DNA of 30,680 nucleotides from a virus. Its lineage: Duplodnaviria; Caudoviricetes. Positions 894 to 30,304 of this stretch are shown piece by piece (within the stretch, counting starts at the first letter, position 1; each line of letters starts with the position of its first letter). The notes beneath the pieces were generated by a model. The model made no database searches and had not been told where the DNA came from. It saw only the letters and a program-made list of their open reading frames with translations. Where the stretch lies: positions 1 to 30,680 of the IMG/VR virus record IMGVR_UViG_3300026484_000341. One strand, given 5' to 3'. Made by a program: the position numbers and the translations under genes.

Positions 894-1107
894 AGAAAAA
901 GCAAAAAGCGAGCTTAAAAAGTATGTTATTTCTTCTATTTCAAGTAAAGAAATTCAACATATAAACATTAATGTTGCAAGAAGAGTTATTGATGAGATAT
1001 TTGACAATTTTGAAAAAGAAAAAGAGCAACTCAAAAAAGACAGAGACTACTGGAAGTTGAGTTTTAATAAACAAGTTTATGCGAGTAGGAGAATAAGAAA
1101 TGTATAA
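886..1107 (+). CDS. Hypothetical phage protein
   Basis: The ORF track gives 856. ATG at 886 has SD GAGGTG and overlaps the RecT stop; the end overlaps the next gene. Confidence 0.6.
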   Translation: MTREKAKSELKKYVISSISSKEIQHININVARRVIDEIFDNFEKEKEQLKKDRDYWKLSFNKQVYASRRIRNV

Positions 1108-1309
1108 GTCTTTAACAAGCATAGCAAAAATGTTTGATGTAAGCACAAACTACATAAAAAAACATTTCTCAAATGATTTTAAAGAGGGTGTGCATTATAT
1201 CTATGTCGGAAATTTAAAAAGATTTAATGTTAATGAGATGCGAAAACTCTTAACAACTAAAAAAGAAAATCATAATGAAAATCCTATTCTTGAAAGATTT
1301 TTAATTTAA
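1100..1309 (+). CDS. Excisionase / recombination directionality factor-like winged-HTH protein
   Basis: 69 aa, basic; 'SLTSIAKMFDVSTNYIKK...FKEGVHYIYVGNLKRFN' HTH plus wing; immediately upstream of the integrase. Confidence 0.65.
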   Translation: MYKSLTSIAKMFDVSTNYIKKHFSNDFKEGVHYIYVGNLKRFNVNEMRKLLTTKKENHNENPILERFLI

Positions 1310-1312
1310 AGG

Positions 1313-1321
1313 TGTTATTAT
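1313..1321 (+). promoter_or_regulatory. Putative extended -10 promoter for integrase (TGtTATTAT)
   Basis: TG-n-TATTAT between the xis stop and the integrase SD. Confidence 0.4.
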
Positions 1322-1340
1322 GTTACCTGATAGTATGAGT

Positions 1341-1361
1341 GCCACTTCTAAAAGGAGTGGT
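1341..1361 (+). promoter_or_regulatory. Hairpin occluding the integrase Shine-Dalgarno
   Basis: GCCACTTCT-AAA-AGGAGTGGT: a 9-bp stem (2 G-U) whose 3' arm contains AGGAG, upstream of ATG 1368. Confidence 0.55.
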
Positions 1362-1367
1362 AAAAAA

Positions 1368-2423
1368 ATGGCATCACATTACAAAAGAGGTAATAAAATA
1401 TGGATTACTTACTTTGTAGATAAAGTAAGACACAGAAAGTCAACAGGTCTTGATTACAATGCAAAAAACATCAAGATAGTTGAAAATGAGATTATACCTC
1501 AGTTGATGAAAAAAATAGCTACAGGTGAAATATACAAAAAAAAGCCTAAAAGTTTTGAATACTACGGCGGTATATTTTTAAAACAAAAAAGTATGAATAG
1601 GAGCTACTTTACAGCAGTTGGATATTACAAACGAGTAATAGAACACTTCAAAGGTAGAAATATTGATACTATTACAAGACTTGATATTAAAGAATATCTA
1701 ATATCACTTAATATCAAGAATATTTCAAGGAACAAGTATAAAAGTTGCGTTAAAGAGATATTTGAGCTTGCAGTGGATGATGGTGTCATACCGACAAACC
1801 CTGCTCTAAATATCAAATTTCCTCAAGATCGCAAAACAAAGATTGAATACTACACCCGTGAAGAAGTAGAAAAGTTGTTAAATGCTGCAAACGGTGTAAT
1901 GAAAGCTTATCTTGAAATAGCATTTAATACAGGTATGCGTACAGGCGAAATACTTGGCTTGCAGCTATCTGACTTTAAAGATGATGGCTACATTCATTTA
2001 AAGCGTACTAGGACGCTCGGAGTTGTTGGAGAGGGTAAGAACTACAACGCAAAGAGAAATGTGCCTTATAACGCTTATATGTATGAATTGGCTAAGGCAA
2101 TACAGCCTAAAGACAACTTGTATCTGTTTGGAAACATTGATGATGCAAGAAAGTTGAGATTTATGTGGAGAGATGTTTGCATTGATGCAGGTGTTAAAAA
2201 ACATAAACTCTATTCAACACGACATACTTTTGCAACTTTAATGCTTCAAGAAAGCATAGTTAGTATAAATGAGCTATCGGGTCTATTAGGACACTCAAGC
2301 CCTAAAGTTACACTTGCACACTATGCCAGTGTCATAGAGTCTAAAAATATTGATTTGGGATCAAATTTTGCACTTTTTAGGCACAATATGGACACAGTAC
2401 AAAATAAAGAAGCTCTAAAGTAA
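1368..2423 (+). CDS. int: Tyrosine recombinase (phage integrase)
   Basis: N-terminal arm-binding domain (YKRGNKIWITY..RHRKSTG); catalytic motifs TGMRTGE, YSTRHTFAT, LLGHSS, TLAHY. Start moved from 1320 to 1368 because of the AAGGAG SD. Confidence 0.95.
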   Translation: MASHYKRGNKIWITYFVDKVRHRKSTGLDYNAKNIKIVENEIIPQLMKKIATGEIYKKKPKSFEYYGGIFLKQKSMNRSYFTAVGYYKRVIEHFKGRNIDTITRLDIKEYLISLNIKNISRNKYKSCVKEIFELAVDDGVIPTNPALNIKFPQDRKTKIEYYTREEVEKLLNAANGVMKAYLEIAFNTGMRTGEILGLQLSDFKDDGYIHLKRTRTLGVVGEGKNYNAKRNVPYNAYMYELAKAIQPKDNLYLFGNIDDARKLRFMWRDVCIDAGVKKHKLYSTRHTFATLMLQESIVSINELSGLLGHSSPKVTLAHYASVIESKNIDLGSNFALFRHNMDTVQNKEALK

Positions 2424-2449
2424 CCTATTTAAGGTATTTTCAGCGTATA

Positions 2450-2471
2450 AAGGCACAGGATAAGCCGAGTT
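2450..2471 (-). ncRNA. Fragment resembling the 3' end of RNase P RNA (att core, not a full gene)
   Basis: Minus strand AACTCGGCTTATCCTGTGCCTT matches the conserved rnpB P4 3' strand AAC(C/T)CGGCTTAT, followed by a plausible P1 3' strand. Confidence 0.6.
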
Positions 2472-2473
2472 GC

Positions 2474-2500
2474 TTATAGTCCTTTTTTAGGGGATTATAA
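2474..2500. terminator. Imperfect hairpin between convergent int and endolysin genes, possible terminator
   Basis: TTATAGTCCTTT-TTT-AGGGGATTATAA imperfect inverted repeat. Confidence 0.35.
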
Positions 2501-2539
2501 CATAAATTGTGGCACTTATACTATCAACAAAGACACAAT

Positions 2540-2944
2540 TTAGACACACTGACTCATCTTCATAACTAGCCTAGATGCCCTATTTCCTACTTGTCTATAC
2601 CATAGGCTATCTATCATCTCTTTCGCGGCAGCTCTATAATCTTTAACTTCCAAAGCTTTCAACATTCTTTTAAACTTTAATAGTCGTGGAACTCCCAAGT
2701 TATATGCCATGTTCAATATTACTTCTTTTGCACACTCCGGTAAATCTTCAAAAAAAGAAATATTCTTTTTAACTTCACTAACTGCATCGTTAAATCTTTT
2801 TTCCAAAAGCAATTCCCCCTCAACTTCATCGAGTGGTAATTTAGTTCCATACCCTATCGTAGGAATACCTAAACTATCATTGTATGGATGTGCTACAAAG
2901 CTCTCATCTCTCTTTAGTTCTTCAAGTACATTGTTATACATCAC
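2540..2944 (-). CDS. Endolysin, GH24 / T4-lysozyme-like muramidase
   Basis: E-x8-D-x5-T triad in 'DESFVAHPYNDSLGIPTIGYG'; also 'NMAYNLG' and 'SLWYRQVGNRA'. Confidence 0.92.
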   Translation of the reverse strand: MMYNNVLEELKRDESFVAHPYNDSLGIPTIGYGTKLPLDEVEGELLLEKRFNDAVSEVKKNISFFEDLPECAKEVILNMAYNLGVPRLLKFKRMLKALEVKDYRAAAKEMIDSLWYRQVGNRASRLVMKMSQCV

Positions 2945-3405
2945 ACAACCACCTTTGTATCTACTTTGTTTTTTTTATCGAAACTTCTCATAGCTCCTAC
3001 ACCTAAAATAGATAGAAGTAGCCCTAAAATATCACCGCTACCCATATCAGGAAACTTTGGAATTTCGGGAACAGTTGCAATAATCTCAGGGTGATAAGTC
3101 AAGTAAACTGTATAACACCATACTAAAGTCATAACTATTGCCTTTGGAACATACATAAAGAATAGAGTAATAACTCCTACCCATCCAACAGCAGGTCTCC
3201 ATCCTGCTACAAACAAACTTGGATGCTTCGCTTCTTCTTCGTTAATTTTCATCTGCCCTTGCATCAATTTAGAATGTAACTGCTTTAACTGTAAATCAAG
3301 TTTTGCAAGTTCCGCAGGATCTTTGATTTTTTCACCTGTAATTGCTTCTCTTGCACTTGTTAAAATATCTCCAACATCAGATAAACTAAAATCAATTAAT
3401 CCCAT
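2941..3405 (-). CDS. Holin (3TM / GTA-holin-like family)
   Basis: 'EAKHPSLFVAGWRPAVGWV', hydrophobic helices and C-terminal 'LLSILGVGAMRSFDK'; overlaps the endolysin start. Confidence 0.85.
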   Translation of the reverse strand: MGLIDFSLSDVGDILTSAREAITGEKIKDPAELAKLDLQLKQLHSKLMQGQMKINEEEAKHPSLFVAGWRPAVGWVGVITLFFMYVPKAIVMTLVWCYTVYLTYHPEIIATVPEIPKFPDMGSGDILGLLLSILGVGAMRSFDKKNKVDTKVVV

Positions 3406-3725
3406 TACTGTCCTCCAAAGTTAAGAAAATGCATTTTTGATAGGAACTCAATAACAAGTGCTGCACCTATTGCCATATAAATAACTCGCTCAATCTTTTT
3501 AAGTCTTGCATCAATAGATCCATATTTCTCCATCTCGTTTTTATCATGGAGTATAAAGTTATCTTTGTGCATCTTCATAGTCTCATCAATCTGTGCAAGC
3601 TTGTCGTAAATATTGTTATCTACCATCTCCATTCTAACAATAGAGTTTTTCATCTCATAAAACTCATCTTTTACTTTTTCAAGGCTTGCTATTTTTGCCT
3701 CGATAACCACAATTCTGTCTTCCAT
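3405..3725 (-). CDS. Coiled-coil protein with C-terminal transmembrane helix (lysis-cassette associated)
   Basis: C-terminal 'VIYMAIGAALVIEFL'; stop overlaps the holin ATG. Start is either 3725 (MEDRI) or 3752. Confidence 0.6.
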   Translation of the reverse strand: MEDRIVVIEAKIASLEKVKDEFYEMKNSIVRMEMVDNNIYDKLAQIDETMKMHKDNFILHDKNEMEKYGSIDARLKKIERVIYMAIGAALVIEFLSKMHFLNFGGQ

Positions 3726-3787
3726 ATACAATCCAATAATATTTTTTGTCATTGTATTTAACGATACTCAATCAAAGCAATACTATT

Positions 3788-6700
3788 TTAATCATTATTT
3801 TCCTTTCGTGCTTGACTTCTTGAGTAGCTTAATGAGTTAAGCCCGATATTTTTCAATATCTCTTGTCTTGGTGTTCTAGGCTCTACAACTTTATTTCTTC
3901 TTCTATTTTTTTTGCTTCTTGCTAAACTCTCGATTAAGTTCCAACCACTATAAGCTTGAGCAGGTAGTGGCACATAGCTTTGTGTTAGGTACTTTGCATA
4001 GTCGTATGCTTTTTGTCCTGCACCTTTGTTTTTATATGTAACAGGTCGCCCATAATATGGATTTATCATTCCTGCTTTACTTGGTGCAGTGAGTGTATTT
4101 ACTACTGCATTTGTTGTTGGACCACTTATATTAGATACAAAAAAGTTTATAGGATCAGTTAGCTCAATGTATGGTATCCATCTATCAGTCTTTAAAGTAT
4201 GTATAGTGTCTCCACTTCTTCCTATGCCAAACCTACGCCCTTTGAAGTCTTCTGGCTTGTTTCCACCATAAAAAGGAATATTATCAAGTGGAGTTACTGC
4301 TCCACCTGTAAGTACATATTCAAGTCCTGCTAGTGTTCCCATTGCAAGAGCTGCTTTTTTTGCACCCTGCTTTGTTTTAAGAAGTTTCCAAATAGCAGGC
4401 ATTGTGTAATAACTCCACGATATAAAAGGACTTATTCCTGTATCCCTTAATGCTCTAAAACCTTTAGGCATAGGCTTAGAATAATCCGGCATTATTGTTA
4501 GAACTGCTTTTCTTGCTTCATCTTTACTCATACCAACTTTTTCTCTTAGATGCGCATACATTGCTATTTTATTTATAGCATCTTCCCCGTGATACATATC
4601 CTCACTAAACTTATCTATCTTTCCAAGCACACCTTTTTTCTCAAGCTTTTGCTCTCCTGCAAGTATGTCATTTAACTGGCTTCTTCCAAGTAATCCACCA
4701 TCTTTAGCCTCTAAGAAGTATTTTAAATCTTCTCCCATCTCTTCAAGCTCTTTTAAGTCTGCTTTTGTTGCCTGTCCTAGCATCTTTTTTTGCATCAGTT
4801 TCTCAAGTCTGCTACCTTCATACATCATCTTTCCTGCACGACCTATTGCTGTAACAATCTCATCAGCTCTCATTCCTGCTAAGTGCATTAAAAACTGATT
4901 GCTCATAAAGTTATTAATATGTGATGGAACATTCCAAACAGTTTTTGACTTTTTCCAAAGAGATAAATAGTTTTTCCATATCCTCGCAAAAGCTCCATCG
5001 CTTCCATGAAAAGTATTAAATATCTCATCATTTCTAGCACTAATATCATCAAACACATCTTTTCGTATATGTTTTCCTGCAAGCACCCCATATTTAGGAC
5101 TGTTTGGAGCTTTTATGAAACCTGCTGCACTTATCTCATCATCACTAAACTTCTCAGCATCTTTGAGTATTACTTCATCAATCTTTGATACATCTTCTAA
5201 AAACTTTGCATTATCTGCCATTCTTTTTAATCGCATAAGAGTCTCAGGAATTGTTATAGCACCATCTCTTATCTCATTCATAGCATCGCGTTCTGCTCTG
5301 GTCCAATCTCTTCTTAGCTCATATTTTCCATTTGCCAGTTTTTGAAGTCTAACACCACCATCTCGTAAAGGTTTTTGCGTATTTGCTATAAACTTAGGAT
5401 CAACAAGTAACTTTTTAGCTTCTTTTTCACTTATTACTTGTATATTACCTCGTTTGTGTATATCATCAATCTTAAAACCTTTTTTCATAAGATTTTTTAC
5501 ATCTTTAAAAAAGTGTTGCTCATAATTTCTATGTATGTAGTACCCTGCCCACTCGTCATATTGTTCCTGTGTTAATACACCCTTTGATACTAAATCCTTG
5601 CTTAAATTATCAATATCTTGTTTAAGCTTGTCAGCAAGTGGTTTTAGAGTTGGATTTATATCCTTTGTCTCTCCGGCTATGTAGTCATGCAATGAAACAC
5701 GATCCGCTTCATTTAGCTCTTTTAAGGCTTTATGTAGCCTCTCAAGCTTAACACTCATACCATTTGTTGAAGCAGTTGCACTCTCTCTTAAATCGTGATA
5801 TTTTGCTCCTAAAGTATCAAAAAACCATCTTTCTAATGTACTTGCAGCATCTCCCCACTCTTTTTGAGCCTCTTTGCTTACTATTTTAGATACATGGGCA
5901 TAACCTTTTTTCTTTGCTTCTTTTACTTTGTTTAAAAACTCCTCTTTAGTTTGACTCATTTGTTTGTCTTGTGGTATAATCTCATCAGCACTTCGGTTTT
6001 CCCACTTATTGAGTGCGGATGTTTTACCTTTATTGGTCGTGCTTTTTGCACCGCTGGAGTGCTTGAAATACATCAAGTTACCATCAGTAGCTTTTATCAT
6101 ATTCTTTATACTTCCAATATCTTTATTAAATGATGTTATCTGTTTCAAGTTTCCATTATTATCTTTTACTATCCCTACATAATGAACAAGTCCATTTTCA
6201 TCTTTGTATGGTTTGTAATATTCTATCTGCTTTTTAATAGGATTTTTTATAACAAAAAGTGGCTCTTCAAGTGCATCTTTAAATGCTCCGGTTAGCCAAG
6301 CTCTATCTTGAAAATATGTATTATCTGTAAAGTGCTTGTATATCTTTGATACATTAAAAGAAACATCGCCTATCGGAGTTTTAACTTTTGTCCATTCCCT
6401 GGTATTAAACATATTTTTAAATTCTTGAAAGCTTAAAGGCTTCGGCAACTCGCTAGCATCTTTCATTATCTCATTTTCAAGTACCCTATCACTACTTTTA
6501 TTGAGATACTTATCTTCTAACTCTCTTGCGTGTTTTTGAGTAAGTCCATCAATGAGAGCATCATCGCTGTTATTAAATCGCATTACTGCATCTTCCGGTG
6601 CAATATCTTCACTACTGAATGGTGTTATCTTCTCTCTTTGCTCTGGGGTATAGTCTGCCCTTGCCTGAACATCTCTTGCTTCTATCTCTCCTGCGAGCTT

Positions 6701-9700
6701 CTGATACATATTAAAAGCTTCCTCTTTACCACCATCTTTATATTTACTCTCAAGCTCACTAAGCTGCTTTAGCTTTTTATCTCTTATGAAATCATCTGGC
6801 TCAAACTCTAACTCATATTTTAAAAGATTTATCTTTTTCTTGAAGTCATTATAAAACTCTTGTGCTGATCCTCCACGCGCAAAGCCTTCCTCTTTTTGAA
6901 TAGAGTGTTGCAACTCATGCAATAGAGTAGATTTAAAGTCATCTTTCGTTTTAAAGTCTTTCATACCTACCTCTATTCCATCTCTTGAAAAACTTGATCC
7001 ACTGCCATTGTGAAACTTAATATTTATATCTTTTAACTCTGGGTAATTATCAAATAACTCTTTATGATCCAGTATATTTTCAAGCTTTGTTCCTTCTTTA
7101 GTATTTACATATCTAGCTAGATTTTTTAACTTAGCTTTACTATCATCAATCTCAAACCGCTCTAAAGTATCATATTTTCCATCAAAAGTCTTTCCGGAAC
7201 TCTTTGCAGCATCAAAACCTTTTGCCTTGCTACCTGCGAATAGTCCAGCTTTAAATCCGCCCTCTTCTTCTTCAAAGAGTTTAGGTGCTGCTTTTTTAAG
7301 TGCATTTATTCCTACTGCTCCTATTCCTGCACCTATTAAAATATCAATAAGGTCTGTTTTCCCATCTCCATTATAATCTCTTTGATTTATAGCGGTATCA
7401 CTTCCGCCTGCAAAAGCGCCTGCCATTGTATGCGTAGGATTTACAAATAAAATACCCTCTTTTTCTGCAACTTTTGCTATCTTTTCAGCTCTTGCACCAT
7501 CTATTTTAGGATTATATTTTGATACTTTCAAGCCCTTTTTCTTTAGTAATTCTATAGTTTCTTTGCTAGTACCATTTGGAACTAAAGCTACTTTGAACTC
7601 TCCTAAATCAACTTTTCTAAGTATCTTAGTTTCAAAATATTCAGTTGGCATCTCTTGCATTGCTGTTTTTAGATTTTCAATATCATCTTTTATACTTTTT
7701 GGTAAGTCTTTAATACCGTACTCATTTAATACTCTATCAAGTGGAGCATCTGCAATTTCTGATAAAATTCCGTTTAGTGTATCATTTGAAAAACTGGTGT
7801 TTCCTGTATGCTCATTCAAAGCATCAGATATTTTAAAGTATTCATCCTCTACCTCTTTTTTAACAACTTCAAATTCATCTTTAGAAACAAGTCTATCTTT
7901 TGCTTTTTGTATCTGTGCTAGTGATTTAAACTGTGGTGTGTGTAATGCTCTTATACTTCCTGTTCCATAGTTAAAGCCCTCTCCACCTCTTAAATCTTTT
8001 TTTAGTTTTTTAACTACATTATCTATGTTGTGGTCTATCCACTTTTGCCTGCCGTTTCTATCTGTACCGTTATAAATTTTTTCTTCTGCTCCATGCTGTT
8101 TATAATAATCATCTACATAATCTTTAAACTCTTGCTTGTGTTTTTTGTCTATAATCTTAGATACATTTGATCGTGTTGCATAAAAATCCGGTGATTTCCC
8201 TTTTTCAATTTTTCTTAGTGTATCTTTCATTATTTGAGCATAATTTTTTGCAACTCTTTGTATTTGCGTTTCGCTCCAATCGTTTATATCATCGCCTATT
8301 TTATTTTTCAAAAACTCTTTAACTTTTGAGATAAACTTATCATCATTCACATAGTCTCTGTTTAATTTTCCATCTTCATAAAAAGGCTTAAATGTTTTTG
8401 CAATTTCTATATTCTCTTTTTTTGGTGCATCATATTTTAAAACTTTATCTTTCTTATATCCTTTGCTTTCAAGGAATTTCATTTTTAAGCCTATATCATC
8501 TATAAGATTATCGACATCTACATACCCGCCTCTAGCTACTAAATCGTGATATTTATCTAAATCATCTTCAATATTTCTAATTGCTTTATGTGATAATTGT
8601 TTTTTTATTTGTGGGTATCGTGGACTGTAAATATCTGCACCATAAGTTTTAGTGTCTCTTTTAGGTGTTATTATCTCTTTATCACCTAAAAGTGTAATAT
8701 TTCCAAAACCATCAAGCGGAGTATCTTTTTTAGTAACTGCAATACTTGGTACTGCTAAACCTCCTTGCTTATCAGCAAACTTTACATTATCCTCAGTAAG
8801 GTTGTGCTGTGCTATTAAATCTTTTTCTTCTTTTTGAGCTTTACTTTTAACTGGACTCATAGAGTTAAAACTATTTCCACGCTTCTGCACCTCTGGGTTA
8901 AAGTTTACCCTATCAAGTGCATCTACTGCAATATCTTTTAACTTACCTCTTATTGTTCCATTTTTAAGTGCTTGTTTGACTGCTGTATATCCACCTAAAC
9001 CTAAGATAAACTTCTCAGGATCAAAAGTTATATTTCCGTTTTCATCCTGTCCTATTCCTGCATACGCTCCAACTGCTACATTGTCTAAACCTTTTGCAAA
9101 AACTGCATTTGCTTCTTCCCATTCACTTGGTGATAGCTTAACATCTGTATCATCAAGCTTTGCAAGTTCTGCTTTGTAGTCAATATTATTTTCACTATTA
9201 AATGACTTCGCATAGTCTGGGTGATTATCTAAAGTGCTTAAATCAGTTTCAAGCTTACTAAGAAGATCATCATCATATTTTCCTTTGTAAAGCTTATCTA
9301 CATCACCTTTTGTTAAATGAAAATCATGCGCATAGTTTTTCTCGTAAACTGCTCTATCGTAAGCGTGCTTATTCTCTCCACCATATCCATCAAGCTCTCT
9401 ATATCCACCTTTGCTTACCAACCTTTGTGGACTTCTTGCATCTTTGGCACTTACACTTTCTCTCATGCTTAATAGCTCTTGTAGTCGTGGGTGTGCTGCT
9501 ATTTTTTGGTATCTCTGCATTAATTCCGCATCTGCATTATATGGTACCGGTATGTTATTGTTAAAATCTCCACTTACAAAGTTTGGATTATAAGGCTGTT
9601 CTGGTTGCTGTGGATAAATACTCTCTTTAGTATATTGTGGTTGTACTTCGTATTTATGTTGATAAATAGGTTCTAAACCTTGTGCTACCCTCTTTTTATC

Positions 9701-10606
9701 TGCTTCTTTTGCCAATACTTCTAAGGCTGTATTTATATCCATTGTTGCAGGTGGATTGTTCGGTCTCATTTGGAAATTTGGCTCTTTTTTAGCACCAAAG
9801 CCCGCCTGCTCTACTTTGTAAGCATCCGGTACTTTTGGATATTTTCCTTGCAAAATCTCTCCGCTAATTGCTTCTGTTTCTTGTGGCGATAATCCTAGAG
9901 CGTCTGCATTATTTAAGATCGCGCTTGCTATGTCTTCATCACTTTTTGCGCCTTGTACCATTTCAGGCTTAATTACATTATTTACCCTGCCTTTTGTAAA
10001 AGCGGATATAATGCCATTTAGTCCTGCAACTATGCCTGCACCAATCTCTGCATTATGCACTTTCTCTGTTGTACTCATTGCATCGTTTCCATAGTCTTTT
10101 GCAGCCATAGTTCCTGCGCCAATACCTGCACCTAAACCCATACTTGTTGCTACTGCTCTTGGTTTTGTTTTGGTTGCACCAACTGCTAATTTTTCAATAA
10201 GACTTCCTGCCTTACCTATTTTTTGCCCTTTAGATACTATTCCTGCTGGTGTAAGATTTAAAGGGTCTCCTATCATTTCTCCTGCTAGTCCAACCCATTC
10301 ATTGTCTATATTTCTATCTAGTGTCTGACTTGCTACTCTTGCCCTGTTTTGTAAAGATTTATTACCAAACAGTTTAGCTGCCGATGCTGTGTAGTCTGTA
10401 ATATTTTTTGCTGCTCCGTGAATAAAATCCTCTGCAAAATCTGGTATATACTCATCTATTTTATCCATTCTTACTTGACTATTATTCTGCTCTTGTTTAA
10501 ACTTAGCATAAAGCGGATCTTGTTTGTATGATGAATTTTGTTGCTGATTATTTTGTGATTGTTCTTGCTTGAATTTCTTATAAAGAGGATCTTGTCTGTA
10601 GTCCAT
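3788..10606 (-). CDS. Large internal virion / DNA-ejection polyvalent protein (ART-like domain, LPD23-like plus HExxH metallopeptidase, PBECR-type nuclease)
   Basis: 2272 aa at the end of the structural module; Gly/Ala-rich membrane-like segments; 'RFEIDDS..LENILDHKELFDNYPEL..STLLHELQH.IQ..EGFARGG..Y..LAGEIEAR'; 'VKTPIG...R......ALEEP.FVI...YYK....ITSF'; helical C-terminal region 'DYS....R..GISPFISW.Y'. Confidence 0.8.
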   Translation of the reverse strand: MDYRQDPLYKKFKQEQSQNNQQQNSSYKQDPLYAKFKQEQNNSQVRMDKIDEYIPDFAEDFIHGAAKNITDYTASAAKLFGNKSLQNRARVASQTLDRNIDNEWVGLAGEMIGDPLNLTPAGIVSKGQKIGKAGSLIEKLAVGATKTKPRAVATSMGLGAGIGAGTMAAKDYGNDAMSTTEKVHNAEIGAGIVAGLNGIISAFTKGRVNNVIKPEMVQGAKSDEDIASAILNNADALGLSPQETEAISGEILQGKYPKVPDAYKVEQAGFGAKKEPNFQMRPNNPPATMDINTALEVLAKEADKKRVAQGLEPIYQHKYEVQPQYTKESIYPQQPEQPYNPNFVSGDFNNNIPVPYNADAELMQRYQKIAAHPRLQELLSMRESVSAKDARSPQRLVSKGGYRELDGYGGENKHAYDRAVYEKNYAHDFHLTKGDVDKLYKGKYDDDLLSKLETDLSTLDNHPDYAKSFNSENNIDYKAELAKLDDTDVKLSPSEWEEANAVFAKGLDNVAVGAYAGIGQDENGNITFDPEKFILGLGGYTAVKQALKNGTIRGKLKDIAVDALDRVNFNPEVQKRGNSFNSMSPVKSKAQKEEKDLIAQHNLTEDNVKFADKQGGLAVPSIAVTKKDTPLDGFGNITLLGDKEIITPKRDTKTYGADIYSPRYPQIKKQLSHKAIRNIEDDLDKYHDLVARGGYVDVDNLIDDIGLKMKFLESKGYKKDKVLKYDAPKKENIEIAKTFKPFYEDGKLNRDYVNDDKFISKVKEFLKNKIGDDINDWSETQIQRVAKNYAQIMKDTLRKIEKGKSPDFYATRSNVSKIIDKKHKQEFKDYVDDYYKQHGAEEKIYNGTDRNGRQKWIDHNIDNVVKKLKKDLRGGEGFNYGTGSIRALHTPQFKSLAQIQKAKDRLVSKDEFEVVKKEVEDEYFKISDALNEHTGNTSFSNDTLNGILSEIADAPLDRVLNEYGIKDLPKSIKDDIENLKTAMQEMPTEYFETKILRKVDLGEFKVALVPNGTSKETIELLKKKGLKVSKYNPKIDGARAEKIAKVAEKEGILFVNPTHTMAGAFAGGSDTAINQRDYNGDGKTDLIDILIGAGIGAVGINALKKAAPKLFEEEEGGFKAGLFAGSKAKGFDAAKSSGKTFDGKYDTLERFEIDDSKAKLKNLARYVNTKEGTKLENILDHKELFDNYPELKDINIKFHNGSGSSFSRDGIEVGMKDFKTKDDFKSTLLHELQHSIQKEEGFARGGSAQEFYNDFKKKINLLKYELEFEPDDFIRDKKLKQLSELESKYKDGGKEEAFNMYQKLAGEIEARDVQARADYTPEQREKITPFSSEDIAPEDAVMRFNNSDDALIDGLTQKHARELEDKYLNKSSDRVLENEIMKDASELPKPLSFQEFKNMFNTREWTKVKTPIGDVSFNVSKIYKHFTDNTYFQDRAWLTGAFKDALEEPLFVIKNPIKKQIEYYKPYKDENGLVHYVGIVKDNNGNLKQITSFNKDIGSIKNMIKATDGNLMYFKHSSGAKSTTNKGKTSALNKWENRSADEIIPQDKQMSQTKEEFLNKVKEAKKKGYAHVSKIVSKEAQKEWGDAASTLERWFFDTLGAKYHDLRESATASTNGMSVKLERLHKALKELNEADRVSLHDYIAGETKDINPTLKPLADKLKQDIDNLSKDLVSKGVLTQEQYDEWAGYYIHRNYEQHFFKDVKNLMKKGFKIDDIHKRGNIQVISEKEAKKLLVDPKFIANTQKPLRDGGVRLQKLANGKYELRRDWTRAERDAMNEIRDGAITIPETLMRLKRMADNAKFLEDVSKIDEVILKDAEKFSDDEISAAGFIKAPNSPKYGVLAGKHIRKDVFDDISARNDEIFNTFHGSDGAFARIWKNYLSLWKKSKTVWNVPSHINNFMSNQFLMHLAGMRADEIVTAIGRAGKMMYEGSRLEKLMQKKMLGQATKADLKELEEMGEDLKYFLEAKDGGLLGRSQLNDILAGEQKLEKKGVLGKIDKFSEDMYHGEDAINKIAMYAHLREKVGMSKDEARKAVLTIMPDYSKPMPKGFRALRDTGISPFISWSYYTMPAIWKLLKTKQGAKKAALAMGTLAGLEYVLTGGAVTPLDNIPFYGGNKPEDFKGRRFGIGRSGDTIHTLKTDRWIPYIELTDPINFFVSNISGPTTNAVVNTLTAPSKAGMINPYYGRPVTYKNKGAGQKAYDYAKYLTQSYVPLPAQAYSGWNLIESLARSKKNRRRNKVVEPRTPRQEILKNIGLNSLSYSRSQARKENND
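5951..5980 (+). promoter_or_regulatory. Antisense sigma70 promoter inside the polyvalent-protein gene
   Basis: TTGACT (5951-5956), 18-bp spacer, TATAAT (5975-5980), with an extended -10 TG (TGgTATAAT). Confidence 0.7.
5987..6063 (+). ncRNA. Putative 77-nt structured cloverleaf-like antisense RNA
   Basis: Starts 7 nt after the -10. The ends pair over 10-11 bp (AGCACUUCGG/CUGGAGUGCU) and enclose three hairpins. GC is 36/77 (47%) in an AT-rich gene. Confidence 0.55.
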
Positions 10607-27610: not shown

Positions 27611-27884
27611 CTTCTATCTCCTTTCGTAATCTTTTTATTCTGTAAATATTTACATCAAAACCAATATCTTCAAAATGCTTTAGTATGTCTTCATCAGGCA
27701 TACCCTTATCTACGATACACTCTAGTATCATGTATCTCTCTATGCTTTTTGGCGTTAGCGTAAACTTAGCACTTGGGTATCGTCTTGCAACACTCAGTGC
27801 CTTTGCCCCATCGCCTCCGAACAACTCGTTAATGAGAAAATATGTGTTAATCTCATTCGTACTTGGTTTTTTATCTTCTACCAT
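27591..27884 (-). CDS. Possible Mor/C-family transcription activator (HTH)
   Basis: 97 aa; pattern 'AKALSVARRYPSAKFTLTPK...RYMI......G..........NIYRIKRL' resembles the Mu Mor/C layout. Confidence 0.4.
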   Translation of the reverse strand: MVEDKKPSTNEINTYFLINELFGGDGAKALSVARRYPSAKFTLTPKSIERYMILECIVDKGMPDEDILKHFEDIGFDVNIYRIKRLRKEIEDGKREF

Positions 27885-30304
27885 GATGCAAACTCCTCAT
27901 CTATTTCATCTGCATAAATATCTCTCTCGTGATACTCTTCAACTTCTTCTGCTGTTGCTATCACTGTGTTACTTGCAAGTGCCATTGCATCTGCAATATC
28001 TGGACTTCTCCCTAGTGCCTCTTTTATCTCCTTTTTAGATATGATTTGAATTACTCCTTTTTCTGTGATTTTAAATCTCTGTGCTGATAACTCGCCTATT
28101 GCTGCATCATCATCAAACATTTTCCCCTCTTCTTCAAGGATCTTCTTGAGCTTGTAGTAAAGTTCTGCTCTGAGATTGAGGTAAATATCAGGTCGTGAAG
28201 GATTCTCGCTTACTTTACAACCTATTGCCGGTATATTTGTGTACTGTGGCTCATTAAGCACGCTCATAAGTCCGCTGCCCTCGCCTATGCTGTCTATAAA
28301 AATAGCTTTAGGCTCTCTTCCTTTTGCCTTTGCACTCAAATACTCTTCTGCCAACCACCTAGCAGTATTAACCTGTCTGTGCTTCCCTGTAATAGGACAC
28401 TCTTTTTTCTCATAAAAATAATTCCCTACTCTTTTAACAAGTATAGTTCTATCATCTCCTGCATCTGCATAGTCCAATCCCCACACTTCCGCACCATAGT
28501 CGTTATAATCATCTCCAATATTCAAAGCATCTTCAATGATATACATAGGGATAACCGCATCACTTGATGTTCTAGGGAAACGACCTTGTACCCTTACTCT
28601 GTAAGCATCGCTATCAACTCCGTACTCTTTTTTCTTACGCTCTATACTCTCCTTTGTAACATTCTCACTCTCTTCTGCATTAAATACATGAATTTTCCAT
28701 AGCTCTCTGTTTTTGTGATGTGAGTCATAGAAATATCCATCGGTCCTTGTAGGGTTGGCAGTAAGCAGCCGTAAATGCTCCTCTCCTGTTAAACTTCCCT
28801 CGATTACTTCAAAGATTGTGTTAGGAACTCCACTCGCTTCGTCTATAATCCAACACAAAAAAGTAGCGTGAAAACCTTGCAAACCCTCGGGTGCTTCTTT
28901 TCTTGCTGTTCTTGCCACACATTGATTATTATTACAAAAAGCTACGCTGTCATTTTTTACTACTACACACTCTTTAAGTTCTTTTGGTAGTTTTTCACGC
29001 CATTTTCTAACCTCTGGTAATAACAATCTTACAAGCTGCGGTGCTGTCGGCGCTGTTGCCGGTATCTTTGCATCGTATTTGAACAAGCCTACCCATAAAA
29101 TAACCCATGATAAGAGAGTAGATTTACCTGTATTATGTAAAACCGTAAAATCCCCACCTAAAAACTTATGATTTCCATCCAATTCAAAACCGTAATAATC
29201 GCCTATTCCTAAACACTCAACTGATTTAATGCCAAAGTGTAAATTACTTCTTTGGCTTGGTATATCTTTGTTTATTTTGTGTCTTTTGCAAGGGATAATC
29301 TCCGTATTTCTACCGATACTTAATCTATAATAATCTATACCTTTAACTGTTTTGATTTTAATTGTTGTATGAAGTCCTACACTCTTACAAAGATACTGCA
29401 TATCTTTTGCCAACTGAATAAACTTTGTAATAAATTCATATTGTCTTTTTTCTAAGCTTCCATCTGTGTCTAATAAACCTGCGATTAACTCCAATCTCTG
29501 TTTTTTGCTTGATGTTAAATATTGCTTGGGTATATGTTTATTTTTTAATAAATTTAAGGATTTTAACTCTTGTTTTAACTCTAATTTATATTTATTACAA
29601 TTATTTTGAGTATTTTTATATGTTAAAGTATTTTCTAAACTTCTGATATACTCTGCAACTGCATCTTTTTTATTACCCATCCAAATATAATCATTACTGC
29701 TTCCACCATCTCCTAGCCACGCTCCTAAAATATAAGGATGAATTAAAAGGTTTTTTTCACTAAACTCTGTTGAATTTCTATAAATAGCATGAGTTCTTTT
29801 TCTTCTATCACTCCATTTAAGATAATCCTCTACTGTAACTGTTACTTTATCCCCTGTTATCTGTTTTCCGTGTGTTTGAGTAGCAACTAAGCATAAAATA
29901 TGAGACTTATTAAAAATATGCTCTGTATTATCTCTATACACAAACCGATACATTTCTTCTCGACCTCTGTATAACTCTAAAACATTCCGCTCACTTTTTC
30001 CATCATCTCCCATAAGCTTATCGCCCACTTTTATATCTTGAACTGCTTTTATGCTTCCATCACTTAGCATTATTTCTGTATCTATTCCAAAACATCCATG
30101 ACCTGATGCGATGCTTATATCTTTAACTCCTGCGTCTATATCTCTTAATACTGCTTTTTGTTGGCTTGATGGACTTCTATCACTCTTTGCAAACAAACAC
30201 TCATCTACAAATAGTTCTATGCTTGAAGCCCATCTCTCTAGCAGTTCTTTAGTTTTCATCAGCATTGCTCTTTTGCTTATTTTTGTTGTAGAAATACTCT
30301 GCAA
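27878..30304 (-). CDS. terL: Terminase large subunit, intein-containing
   Basis: Spliced Walker A SGHG|TGKS; Walker B WIIDEA; 'ANPTR'; nuclease 'GLDYA..GDD', 'IDSIGEG', 'GRSPDIADA'. The true start is probably 30265 or 30259. Confidence 0.93.
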   Translation of the reverse strand: MQSISTTKISKRAMLMKTKELLERWASSIELFVDECLFAKSDRSPSSQQKAVLRDIDAGVKDISIASGHGCFGIDTEIMLSDGSIKAVQDIKVGDKLMGDDGKSERNVLELYRGREEMYRFVYRDNTEHIFNKSHILCLVATQTHGKQITGDKVTVTVEDYLKWSDRRKRTHAIYRNSTEFSEKNLLIHPYILGAWLGDGGSSNDYIWMGNKKDAVAEYIRSLENTLTYKNTQNNCNKYKLELKQELKSLNLLKNKHIPKQYLTSSKKQRLELIAGLLDTDGSLEKRQYEFITKFIQLAKDMQYLCKSVGLHTTIKIKTVKGIDYYRLSIGRNTEIIPCKRHKINKDIPSQRSNLHFGIKSVECLGIGDYYGFELDGNHKFLGGDFTVLHNTGKSTLLSWVILWVGLFKYDAKIPATAPTAPQLVRLLLPEVRKWREKLPKELKECVVVKNDSVAFCNNNQCVARTARKEAPEGLQGFHATFLCWIIDEASGVPNTIFEVIEGSLTGEEHLRLLTANPTRTDGYFYDSHHKNRELWKIHVFNAEESENVTKESIERKKKEYGVDSDAYRVRVQGRFPRTSSDAVIPMYIIEDALNIGDDYNDYGAEVWGLDYADAGDDRTILVKRVGNYFYEKKECPITGKHRQVNTARWLAEEYLSAKAKGREPKAIFIDSIGEGSGLMSVLNEPQYTNIPAIGCKVSENPSRPDIYLNLRAELYYKLKKILEEEGKMFDDDAAIGELSAQRFKITEKGVIQIISKKEIKEALGRSPDIADAMALASNTVIATAEEVEEYHERDIYADEIDEEFASW
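29132..30094 (-). mobile_element. Intein (321 aa) with LAGLIDADG homing endonuclease
   Basis: Begins CFGIDTEIMLSDG and ends VLHN followed by Thr; motifs LGAWLGDG and LIAGLLDTDG; block B 'FNKSHIL'. Confidence 0.95.

Follow-up and report, generated by a model that had tools for sequence, protein, structure and literature searches.

The 3' end of the RNase P RNA gene as a very probable integration target of a temperate tailed phage

The 30,680-nt stretch of viral DNA analysed here (the window; positions 1 to 30,680 of IMG/VR record IMGVR_UViG_3300026484_000341, Duplodnaviria; Caudoviricetes) very probably carries the phage attachment site (attP) of a temperate tailed phage whose tyrosine integrase inserts into the 3' end of rnpB, the RNase P RNA gene of its host. 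The core of this site lies between the integrase and endolysin genes, 25 nt after the integrase stop codon, where the minus strand of 2449–2471 reads AACTCGGCTTATCCTGTGCCTTT and is an exact copy of the final 23 nt of rnpB on contig C81 of G000, the genome bin that also holds the phage contig. In the host locus (L002) these 23 nt occupy positions 1501–1523, within a match to the class A RNase P RNA family RF00010 at 1193–1526 that spans model positions 1–367 and scores 233.4 bits against a gathering score of 100. Only one rnpB was found in the bin, and a 20-nt part of the core occurs there one further time, on C81 at the rnpB 3' end. No exact match of the window to any of the bin's other 130 contigs is longer than these 23 nt (runner-up, 20 nt), and 0.005 matches of at least this length are expected for the whole window and 2e-5 for a 120-nt gap. 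The Rfam scan alone did not detect an RNase P fragment in the window, the fragment being too short, and the exact 20-nt core was not found in the viral contigs collection. A bacterial attachment site (attB) in a tRNA or tmRNA gene, as in the Islander class, was considered and rejected, as the core matches RF00010 and the other exact matches between window and bin do not exceed 20 nt.

With respect to RNase P RNA structure, we take the core to hold the 3' strand of helix P4 followed by the 3' strand of helix P1. Opposite the host 5' strand at L002 1193–1203, the replacement P1 strand of the phage (11 nt, 2450–2460, minus strand) is paired throughout (11 of 11, including one G-U pair), and the tested P4 positions pair at five of five. 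The host locus itself has the features of a class A RNase P RNA, namely a whole-model RF00010 match with P1 and P4 pairing intact. A first reading of this DNA, made from the letters alone (the sequence-only reading), had proposed that the attP core resembles the 3' end of rnpB and that rnpB serves as attB, and had named complementarity of the host 5' end to the core as a check; the exact match, the pairing and the rnpB sites of related integrases described below bear this out.

Viral and genome contigs (the latter scanned in 50 of 64 parts), metagenomes and searches of genomes supplied integrase loci for comparison, which were classed by what follows the integrase gene. At 40% identity or more, 75 distinct loci were obtained (the window included), 13 of which were too short downstream, leaving 62 scorable. 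Forty-five of these are of the rnpB type: in 38, rnpB converges on the integrase within about 260 nt, and in seven, the window among them, only a 3' fragment follows, which corresponds to an attP or a tandem junction. All eight scorable loci at 70% identity or more are of this type, and the integrase of L135 (83% identity) is followed by a complete rnpB. By Rfam, a complete rnpB stands behind the integrase in 13 of 15 loci of one set, in which L136 was cut off (14 matches when L172, the same element as L007, is also scored); in two mixed sets the same was confirmed for 2 of 20 loci and 6 of 16 loci. Below 40% identity, none of 35 loci is of the rnpB type and 14 adjoin tRNA-like sequence. In a FastTree phylogeny of 68 of 95 proteins, from which those below 32% identity or shorter than 270 aa were left out, the window integrase falls in a clade of seven (support 99) comprising five attP-type and two prophage-junction (attL) sites at rnpB. 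An rnpB-adjacent integrase or remnant was present in at least 11 of 193 genomes of the genus and at least 22 of 352 of the family. In an even draw across the order, 3 of 400 genomes held a close integrase, the range beyond the family being poorly sampled. The sequence-only reading had suggested looking for close integrase homologues beside rnpB, and most scorable loci do adjoin it. Exclusive use of rnpB by the wider clade is not sustained, since 17 of the 62 loci (44–64% identity) lie elsewhere: six at a hairpin site, seven at the rpsR end and four at other sites. The rpsR and hairpin users are nested among the rnpB users in the tree.

Two groups of sister integrases deserve description in their own right. 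Integrases with 55–58% identity sit at the last codons of rpsR, the gene for ribosomal protein S18 (L160 3634–3750, L125 13180–13443, L071, L072, L088, L090, L161 and L164), and in G197 the gene end is repeated on the far side. Another sister group (L010, L064, L070, L055, L152 and L051) adjoins a hairpin site containing CTAAACTC directly behind the integrase gene.

Relatives bounded on both sides display the integrated arrangement. A displaced rnpB end was found in 17 pairs of attL and its counterpart attR from 15 genomes, on a single contig in 11 of them; the side next to the integrase carries the intact rnpB, and the displaced 3' fragment lies at the opposite end of the element. The elements so bounded are diverse. 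Tailed prophages occupy rnpB in G586 (37.0 kb) and G582 (35.3 kb), and their terminase and head families differ. Prophages of 11–12 kb in rnpB of G125, G127, G163 and G222 (L117–L120), each with its own tyrosine integrase, encode a Zot-family pI protein, a secretin and a rolling-circle replication protein and are therefore of inovirus type. Islands of 7–10 kb with few family matches occur in five genomes, and tandem arrays in G222, G681 and G667. Because paired rnpB copies bound tailed and inovirus-type prophages as well as islands, one integration cassette serves several kinds of element. In the fragmented assemblies of G031, G019, G209, G661 and the genome of L054 no attR was found; the attR search left out G673:C15, G699 and G604.

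The restoration of the rnpB 3' end by the incoming element, as the sequence-only reading had anticipated, is supported by these relatives: all 23 attL loci that could be tested show 9–12 bp of pairing between the P1 strand from the element and the 5' strand from the host, which only 0–3 of 100 shuffles reached. The script left 15 of the 38 attL loci unscored, eight being cut off and seven having a variant motif that pairs by eye. In G125, G183, G200, G126 and G582 the P1 strand differs between the two rnpB copies, and the attL version still pairs where it was scored; foreign P1 strands are therefore tolerated.

For the phage of the window, signals of integration come from metagenome runs. Three runs from three studies (X1–X3) hold most of window 1200–4200, and the window may itself stem from one of them. 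The integrase-side contig of X1 follows the window without difference over 1607–2471 and then ends in three non-fitting letters, while the lysis-side contig matches 2449–3118 and extends beyond 2449 by seven non-fitting letters. On the host side of the same run, an rnpB contig ends at the core end (L002 1523) and a downstream contig begins at 1501, where the core starts; these two contigs differ from L002 at 0 and 2 positions. The word length of these run contigs we take to be 31 letters; 23 plus 7 is then the overlap expected of an attR junction. The three-letter end is explained by a second sequence, joined to rnpB in X2, that shares four more letters with the phage arm (4 + 23 + 3 = 30). 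The contigs of X1 thus break at both core edges as attL and attR would make them, the host origin of the foreign letters being our inference, and the integrated form with restored gene and displaced fragment, seen in relatives in 15 genomes, is indicated indirectly for this phage. Runs X4–X9 hold small shares only (scattered pieces in X4) and lie outside this evidence. As separate observations, X1 and X2 show a loose end before window 2437 and after L002 1523, with the second sequence on the same rnpB end; this sequence resembles the phage arm over about 12 bases and belongs to another element or a strain variant. Run X5 contains a related phage (93 differences) whose lysis-side arm enters foreign sequence before window 2461, at the edge of a conserved 7-mer described below, possibly an attR in another host.

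Several observations weigh against integration of this phage at rnpB, besides the sister integrases at other sites. No contig or read seen spells its attL or attR. The rnpB of G000 is empty and the phage is circular, and in the vent metagenomes X2 and X3 a single contig crosses attP unbroken, as does one across attB in X3. Between phage and bin no match of CRISPR-spacer length was found. Moreover, the related loci are kin and partly near-copies, so that their counts do not represent independent events. One could suppose that the 23-nt match arose by chance or is the relic of an old excision, and that the phage integrates elsewhere or not at all; sister integrases have indeed switched to the rpsR end and the hairpin site, and a Sulfurimonas phage with an integrase has been described, in an excerpt of PMC11290706, as apparently non-integrated. 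We consider this highly improbable, given a chance expectation of 0.005 or less, the five related attP sites with a conserved P4 motif but variable P1 strands, and the breaks at both core edges in X1.

Integration into rnpB remains the preferred reading, and the question arises in which host it takes place. The host locus runs uninterrupted through a TetR gene, rnpB and a putative lipoprotein gene, and the bin therefore holds an empty attB together with a free attP. None of the 193 other genomes from the genus contains the exact 22-mer of the core, which thus picks one genome of 194, in keeping with the earlier suggestion that the core is a handle on host identity. Records titled Sulfurimonas sp. 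have rnpB genes with 85% (L049 and L053) and 76% (L052) identity to that of G000, and one titled Campylobacteraceae has 75% along 199 nt, which points to a Sulfurimonas-like host instead of Campylobacter. The true host could also be another species, the contig being merely binned with G000: binning is no proof of infection, a match of about 7 bp suffices for strand exchange, the P4 motif pattern is usual in the genus (142 of 161 other genomes), and the elements of G125, G183, G200, G126 and G582 carry a P1 strand unlike the displaced copy. The restriction of the 22-mer to G000 and the near-identity to L002 of the X1 host contigs that break at the core make this unlikely. These comparisons make the species of G000, a Sulfurimonas-like vent sulfur bacterium, the likely host of the phage.

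Some features of rnpB in these bacteria were observed in passing. Seven rnpB genes of one genus (L115, L174 and L176–L180) have an additional T in the conserved GAGGAAAGTCC motif of the 5' part; those submitted to Rfam still obtain good scores. Five Sulfurimonas-type genes (L045, L065, L066, L076 and L146) have a mismatch at the outermost of the tested P4 pairs, and L054 has one at an inner pair. Across many of the genus's genomes, the 3' motif of rnpB is often located within a few hundred bases of a contig end (without a control count), as expected if variable elements break assemblies there.

Where within the core the strands are exchanged can be approached through the attL/attR pairs of the relatives. 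In attL, the sequence upstream of the crossover is of host origin and that downstream is from the element, and the reverse applies to attR; therefore, differences between the two copies bracket the crossover. CGGCTTA, which lies in the P4 3' strand (window 2461–2467, minus strand), is the only block kept across these pairs. The four bases before it contain differences in all nine pairs that were not found via an 11-mer, the adjacent base in eight of them; after it, differences occur at the first base in one pair and at the second in two pairs, out of 17. As a rule, the identity block comprises no fewer than 7 bp, according to part of PMC10111431. The comparison of junctions, together with the spacing of the arm repeats described below, suggests that CGGCTTA is likely the 7-bp strand-exchange (overlap) region, and the crossover would thus fall within the P4 3' strand, as the sequence-only reading had it. 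This placement has its own weaknesses: the 7-mer itself is mismatched in one pair that looks old, the search forced GCTTA in all pairs and the 11-mer in 8 of 17, and the 7-bp limit derives from integrases 50–72% identical to that of the window, its right edge resting on three pairs.

The sequence-only reading had located the crossover more narrowly, in the 6-bp spacer of the dyad ATAAGC-cgagtt-GCTTAT, four bases away from CGGCTTA. The dyad is present and perfect in this phage (2460–2477), host identity begins at the edge of its spacer as that reading stated, and AACT before the 7-mer is kept in four of the close subclade's five attP sites, all of which would fit an exchange there. However, the left arm of the dyad is absent in L005, L048 and L006, the 80% identical L005 reads AATA before the 7-mer, and the nine pairs differ within precisely those four bases, eight of them next to the 7-mer. 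In addition, the arm repeats are centred at −76 and +76 from the middle of the 7-mer, as compared with about −80 and +72 from that of the spacer. Since the junction pairs, L005 and the arm symmetry agree in this respect, the spacer is probably not the overlap region and the dyad probably not a crossover symmetry; an exchange there or elsewhere in the 23-nt block, still at rnpB, is improbable. We retain CGGCTTA as the likely region of exchange.

The arms of attP carry two co-oriented doubled repeats on the plus strand, the left one in the last codons of the integrase gene (2380–2396) and the right one overlapping the end of the endolysin gene (2532–2548; family D9). The doubled motif has two matches in the window and one in the other 1.57 Mb of the bin, and it is conserved together with the P4 motif in four related attP sites, among which the P1 strand varies. 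Relative to the middle of CGGCTTA (2464), the repeats are centred at −76/+76 in the window and in L003, and at −76/+77, −74/+77 and −76/+76.5 in L048, L005 and L006, respectively. Their conservation and spacing suggest that the doubled repeats are likely arm-binding sites of the integrase. Two short CCT...AGG palindromes also flank the core (2424–2434 and 2481–2491) and have counterparts in related attachment sites; they are possible sites of a DNA-bending protein or RNA hairpins.

Judging from the attL geometry of the relatives, positions 2424–2448 (minus strand) would form a phage trailer following rnpB once integrated, towards the 3' end of the integrase gene. The fold of 2395–2471, which includes it, is not better than those of shuffled sequences (z −0.5), and the trailer of host rnpB does form a hairpin (z −3.6). 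A pattern search on the phage side and directly after host rnpB gave no terminator-like site.

Based on these features, we propose the following hypothetical course of integration, in which (i) the integrase would bind the doubled arm repeats and exchange strands across CGGCTTA; (ii) everything upstream of the crossover would stay host-derived; (iii) the phage would supply the P1 3' strand and a new trailer, leaving the ribozyme whole at attL; (iv) the P1 strand and trailer hairpin of the host would shift to attR; and (v) a small protein encoded upstream of the integrase would drive excision. The last step refers to an open reading frame (ORF) of 69 aa (1100–1309, plus strand), likely an excisionase or recombination directionality factor as judged by synteny and look-alikes. 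Homologues with 26–96% identity lie directly upstream of related integrases, and look-alikes by language-model features (scores of 0.93–0.94, a lead only) are named excisionase or helix-turn-helix protein; no match was found in Pfam, PHROG or solved structures. The integrase itself (367 aa; 1320–2423, plus strand) matches PF00589 (E 7.8e-16) and the integrase family phrog_1 (E 7e-54). Its R207, K240, R301, H325 and Y335 are invariant in alignment A1, and Y298, presumably at the position of the usual His of the HxxR motif, replaces the first His of the catalytic R-K-H-R-H/W-Y set; the residues are those of a tyrosine integrase. With this residue set, the rnpB-identical core next to the integrase gene and the repeats on either side of that core, the phage resembles lambda-type integration systems whose attP restores the target gene.

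The contig to which the window belongs (G000:C54) is 37,949 nt long and has a terminal repeat of 103 nt, and it is therefore a circular phage genome of about 37.8 kb. Pfam and PHROG profile searches identified SU10-type capsid and portal, terminase and lysis genes in the window alongside the integrase, and a divergent repressor pair lies on the same contig outside the window. The endolysin gene (2540–2944, minus strand; PF00959, phrog_7) converges on attP and would flank attR. Farther along, the terminase large subunit (27878–30304, minus strand) has Hint and LAGLIDADG domains, likely marking an intein, and a 2272-aa protein (3788–10606, minus strand) contains a PBECR5 nuclease-like domain at residues 589–797, its C-terminal 720 residues being 79% identical in L048 and about 33% identical in L003.

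In textbooks and island finders, the RNA genes targeted by integrases are those of tRNA and tmRNA; ffs was added as recently as 2025 (PMC12540744). The relatives described here extend this to the gene of an essential ribozyme, targeted in at least 22 of 352 genomes of the family by three kinds of element. As a broader and more speculative reading, on which we would place somewhat less than even confidence, rnpB might be a third general class of RNA-gene landing site and a hotspot in Sulfurimonadaceae of one portable excisionase–integrase–att cassette common to podovirus-like, long-tailed and filamentous phages and small islands. Cutting at a near-invariant P4 7-mer would provide a site in almost any relative while obliging the element to supply P1 and a trailer; P1 complementarity might then act as a post-integration host-range filter. 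Formation of the RNase P RNA 3' end would pass to the prophage, with rnpB transcription running antisense into the integrase gene. The tolerable degree of P1 mismatch in a lysogen thereby becomes a testable question. Including rnpB 3' fragments in searches for attachment sites would map elements that are now missed and give host links at species level, and an integrase cutting the conserved P4 motif might serve for single-copy insertion in a group for which genetic tools are scarce.

None of the literature searched describes an rnpB attachment site, with supplementary tables, which could list some, outside its scope. Term look-ups in the available portions of PMC2885270, PMC2705793, PMC2386152 and 10.1101/2025.09.16.676606 gave incidental or no mentions, and the part of the introduction of PMC12540744 (2025) consulted gives tRNA/tmRNA and csRNA genes as known RNA-gene targets, without listing rnpB. 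Among phages, the best matches in 50,697 phage records are the integrases of Nitratiruptor phages NrS-1 to NrS-5, likewise temperate phages of vent Campylobacterota; at 32–34% identity they are too distant for an inference about the target, and genome loci at such identity mostly adjoin tRNA genes or other sites, none of them rnpB. The closest parallel in arrangement is the Islander class of tRNA and tmRNA elements, which, as far as the main text of PMC4383910 describes, likewise carry a fragment of the target RNA gene in attP, restore the gene, displace a far fragment and form tandem arrays; that text makes no mention of RNase P or rnpB in the portions covered. In contrast to Islanders, the target here is a catalytic RNA gene, and the P1 3' strand is replaced instead of the acceptor stem. 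Enterococcus phage phiEf11, which, according to parts of PMC12540744, integrates into ffs, the gene of the signal recognition particle RNA, also uses a non-coding RNA other than tRNA or tmRNA and has a 27-nt core near the end of its integrase gene, but RNA, host phylum and integrase differ from those of the present system. The attP of helper-embedded phage-inducible chromosomal islands (HE-PICIs), as presented in sections of PMC10111431, shares two co-oriented doubled motifs at fixed distances from the crossover and the identity block of at least 7 bp, and its core was also localised by comparing diverse instances; HE-PICIs differ in targeting prophage late genes, in their motif and in a spacing of 81 and 132 bp. 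Taken together, these comparisons place the phage of the window within the familiar mechanism of tRNA- and tmRNA-type integrases, acting on an apparently undescribed target.
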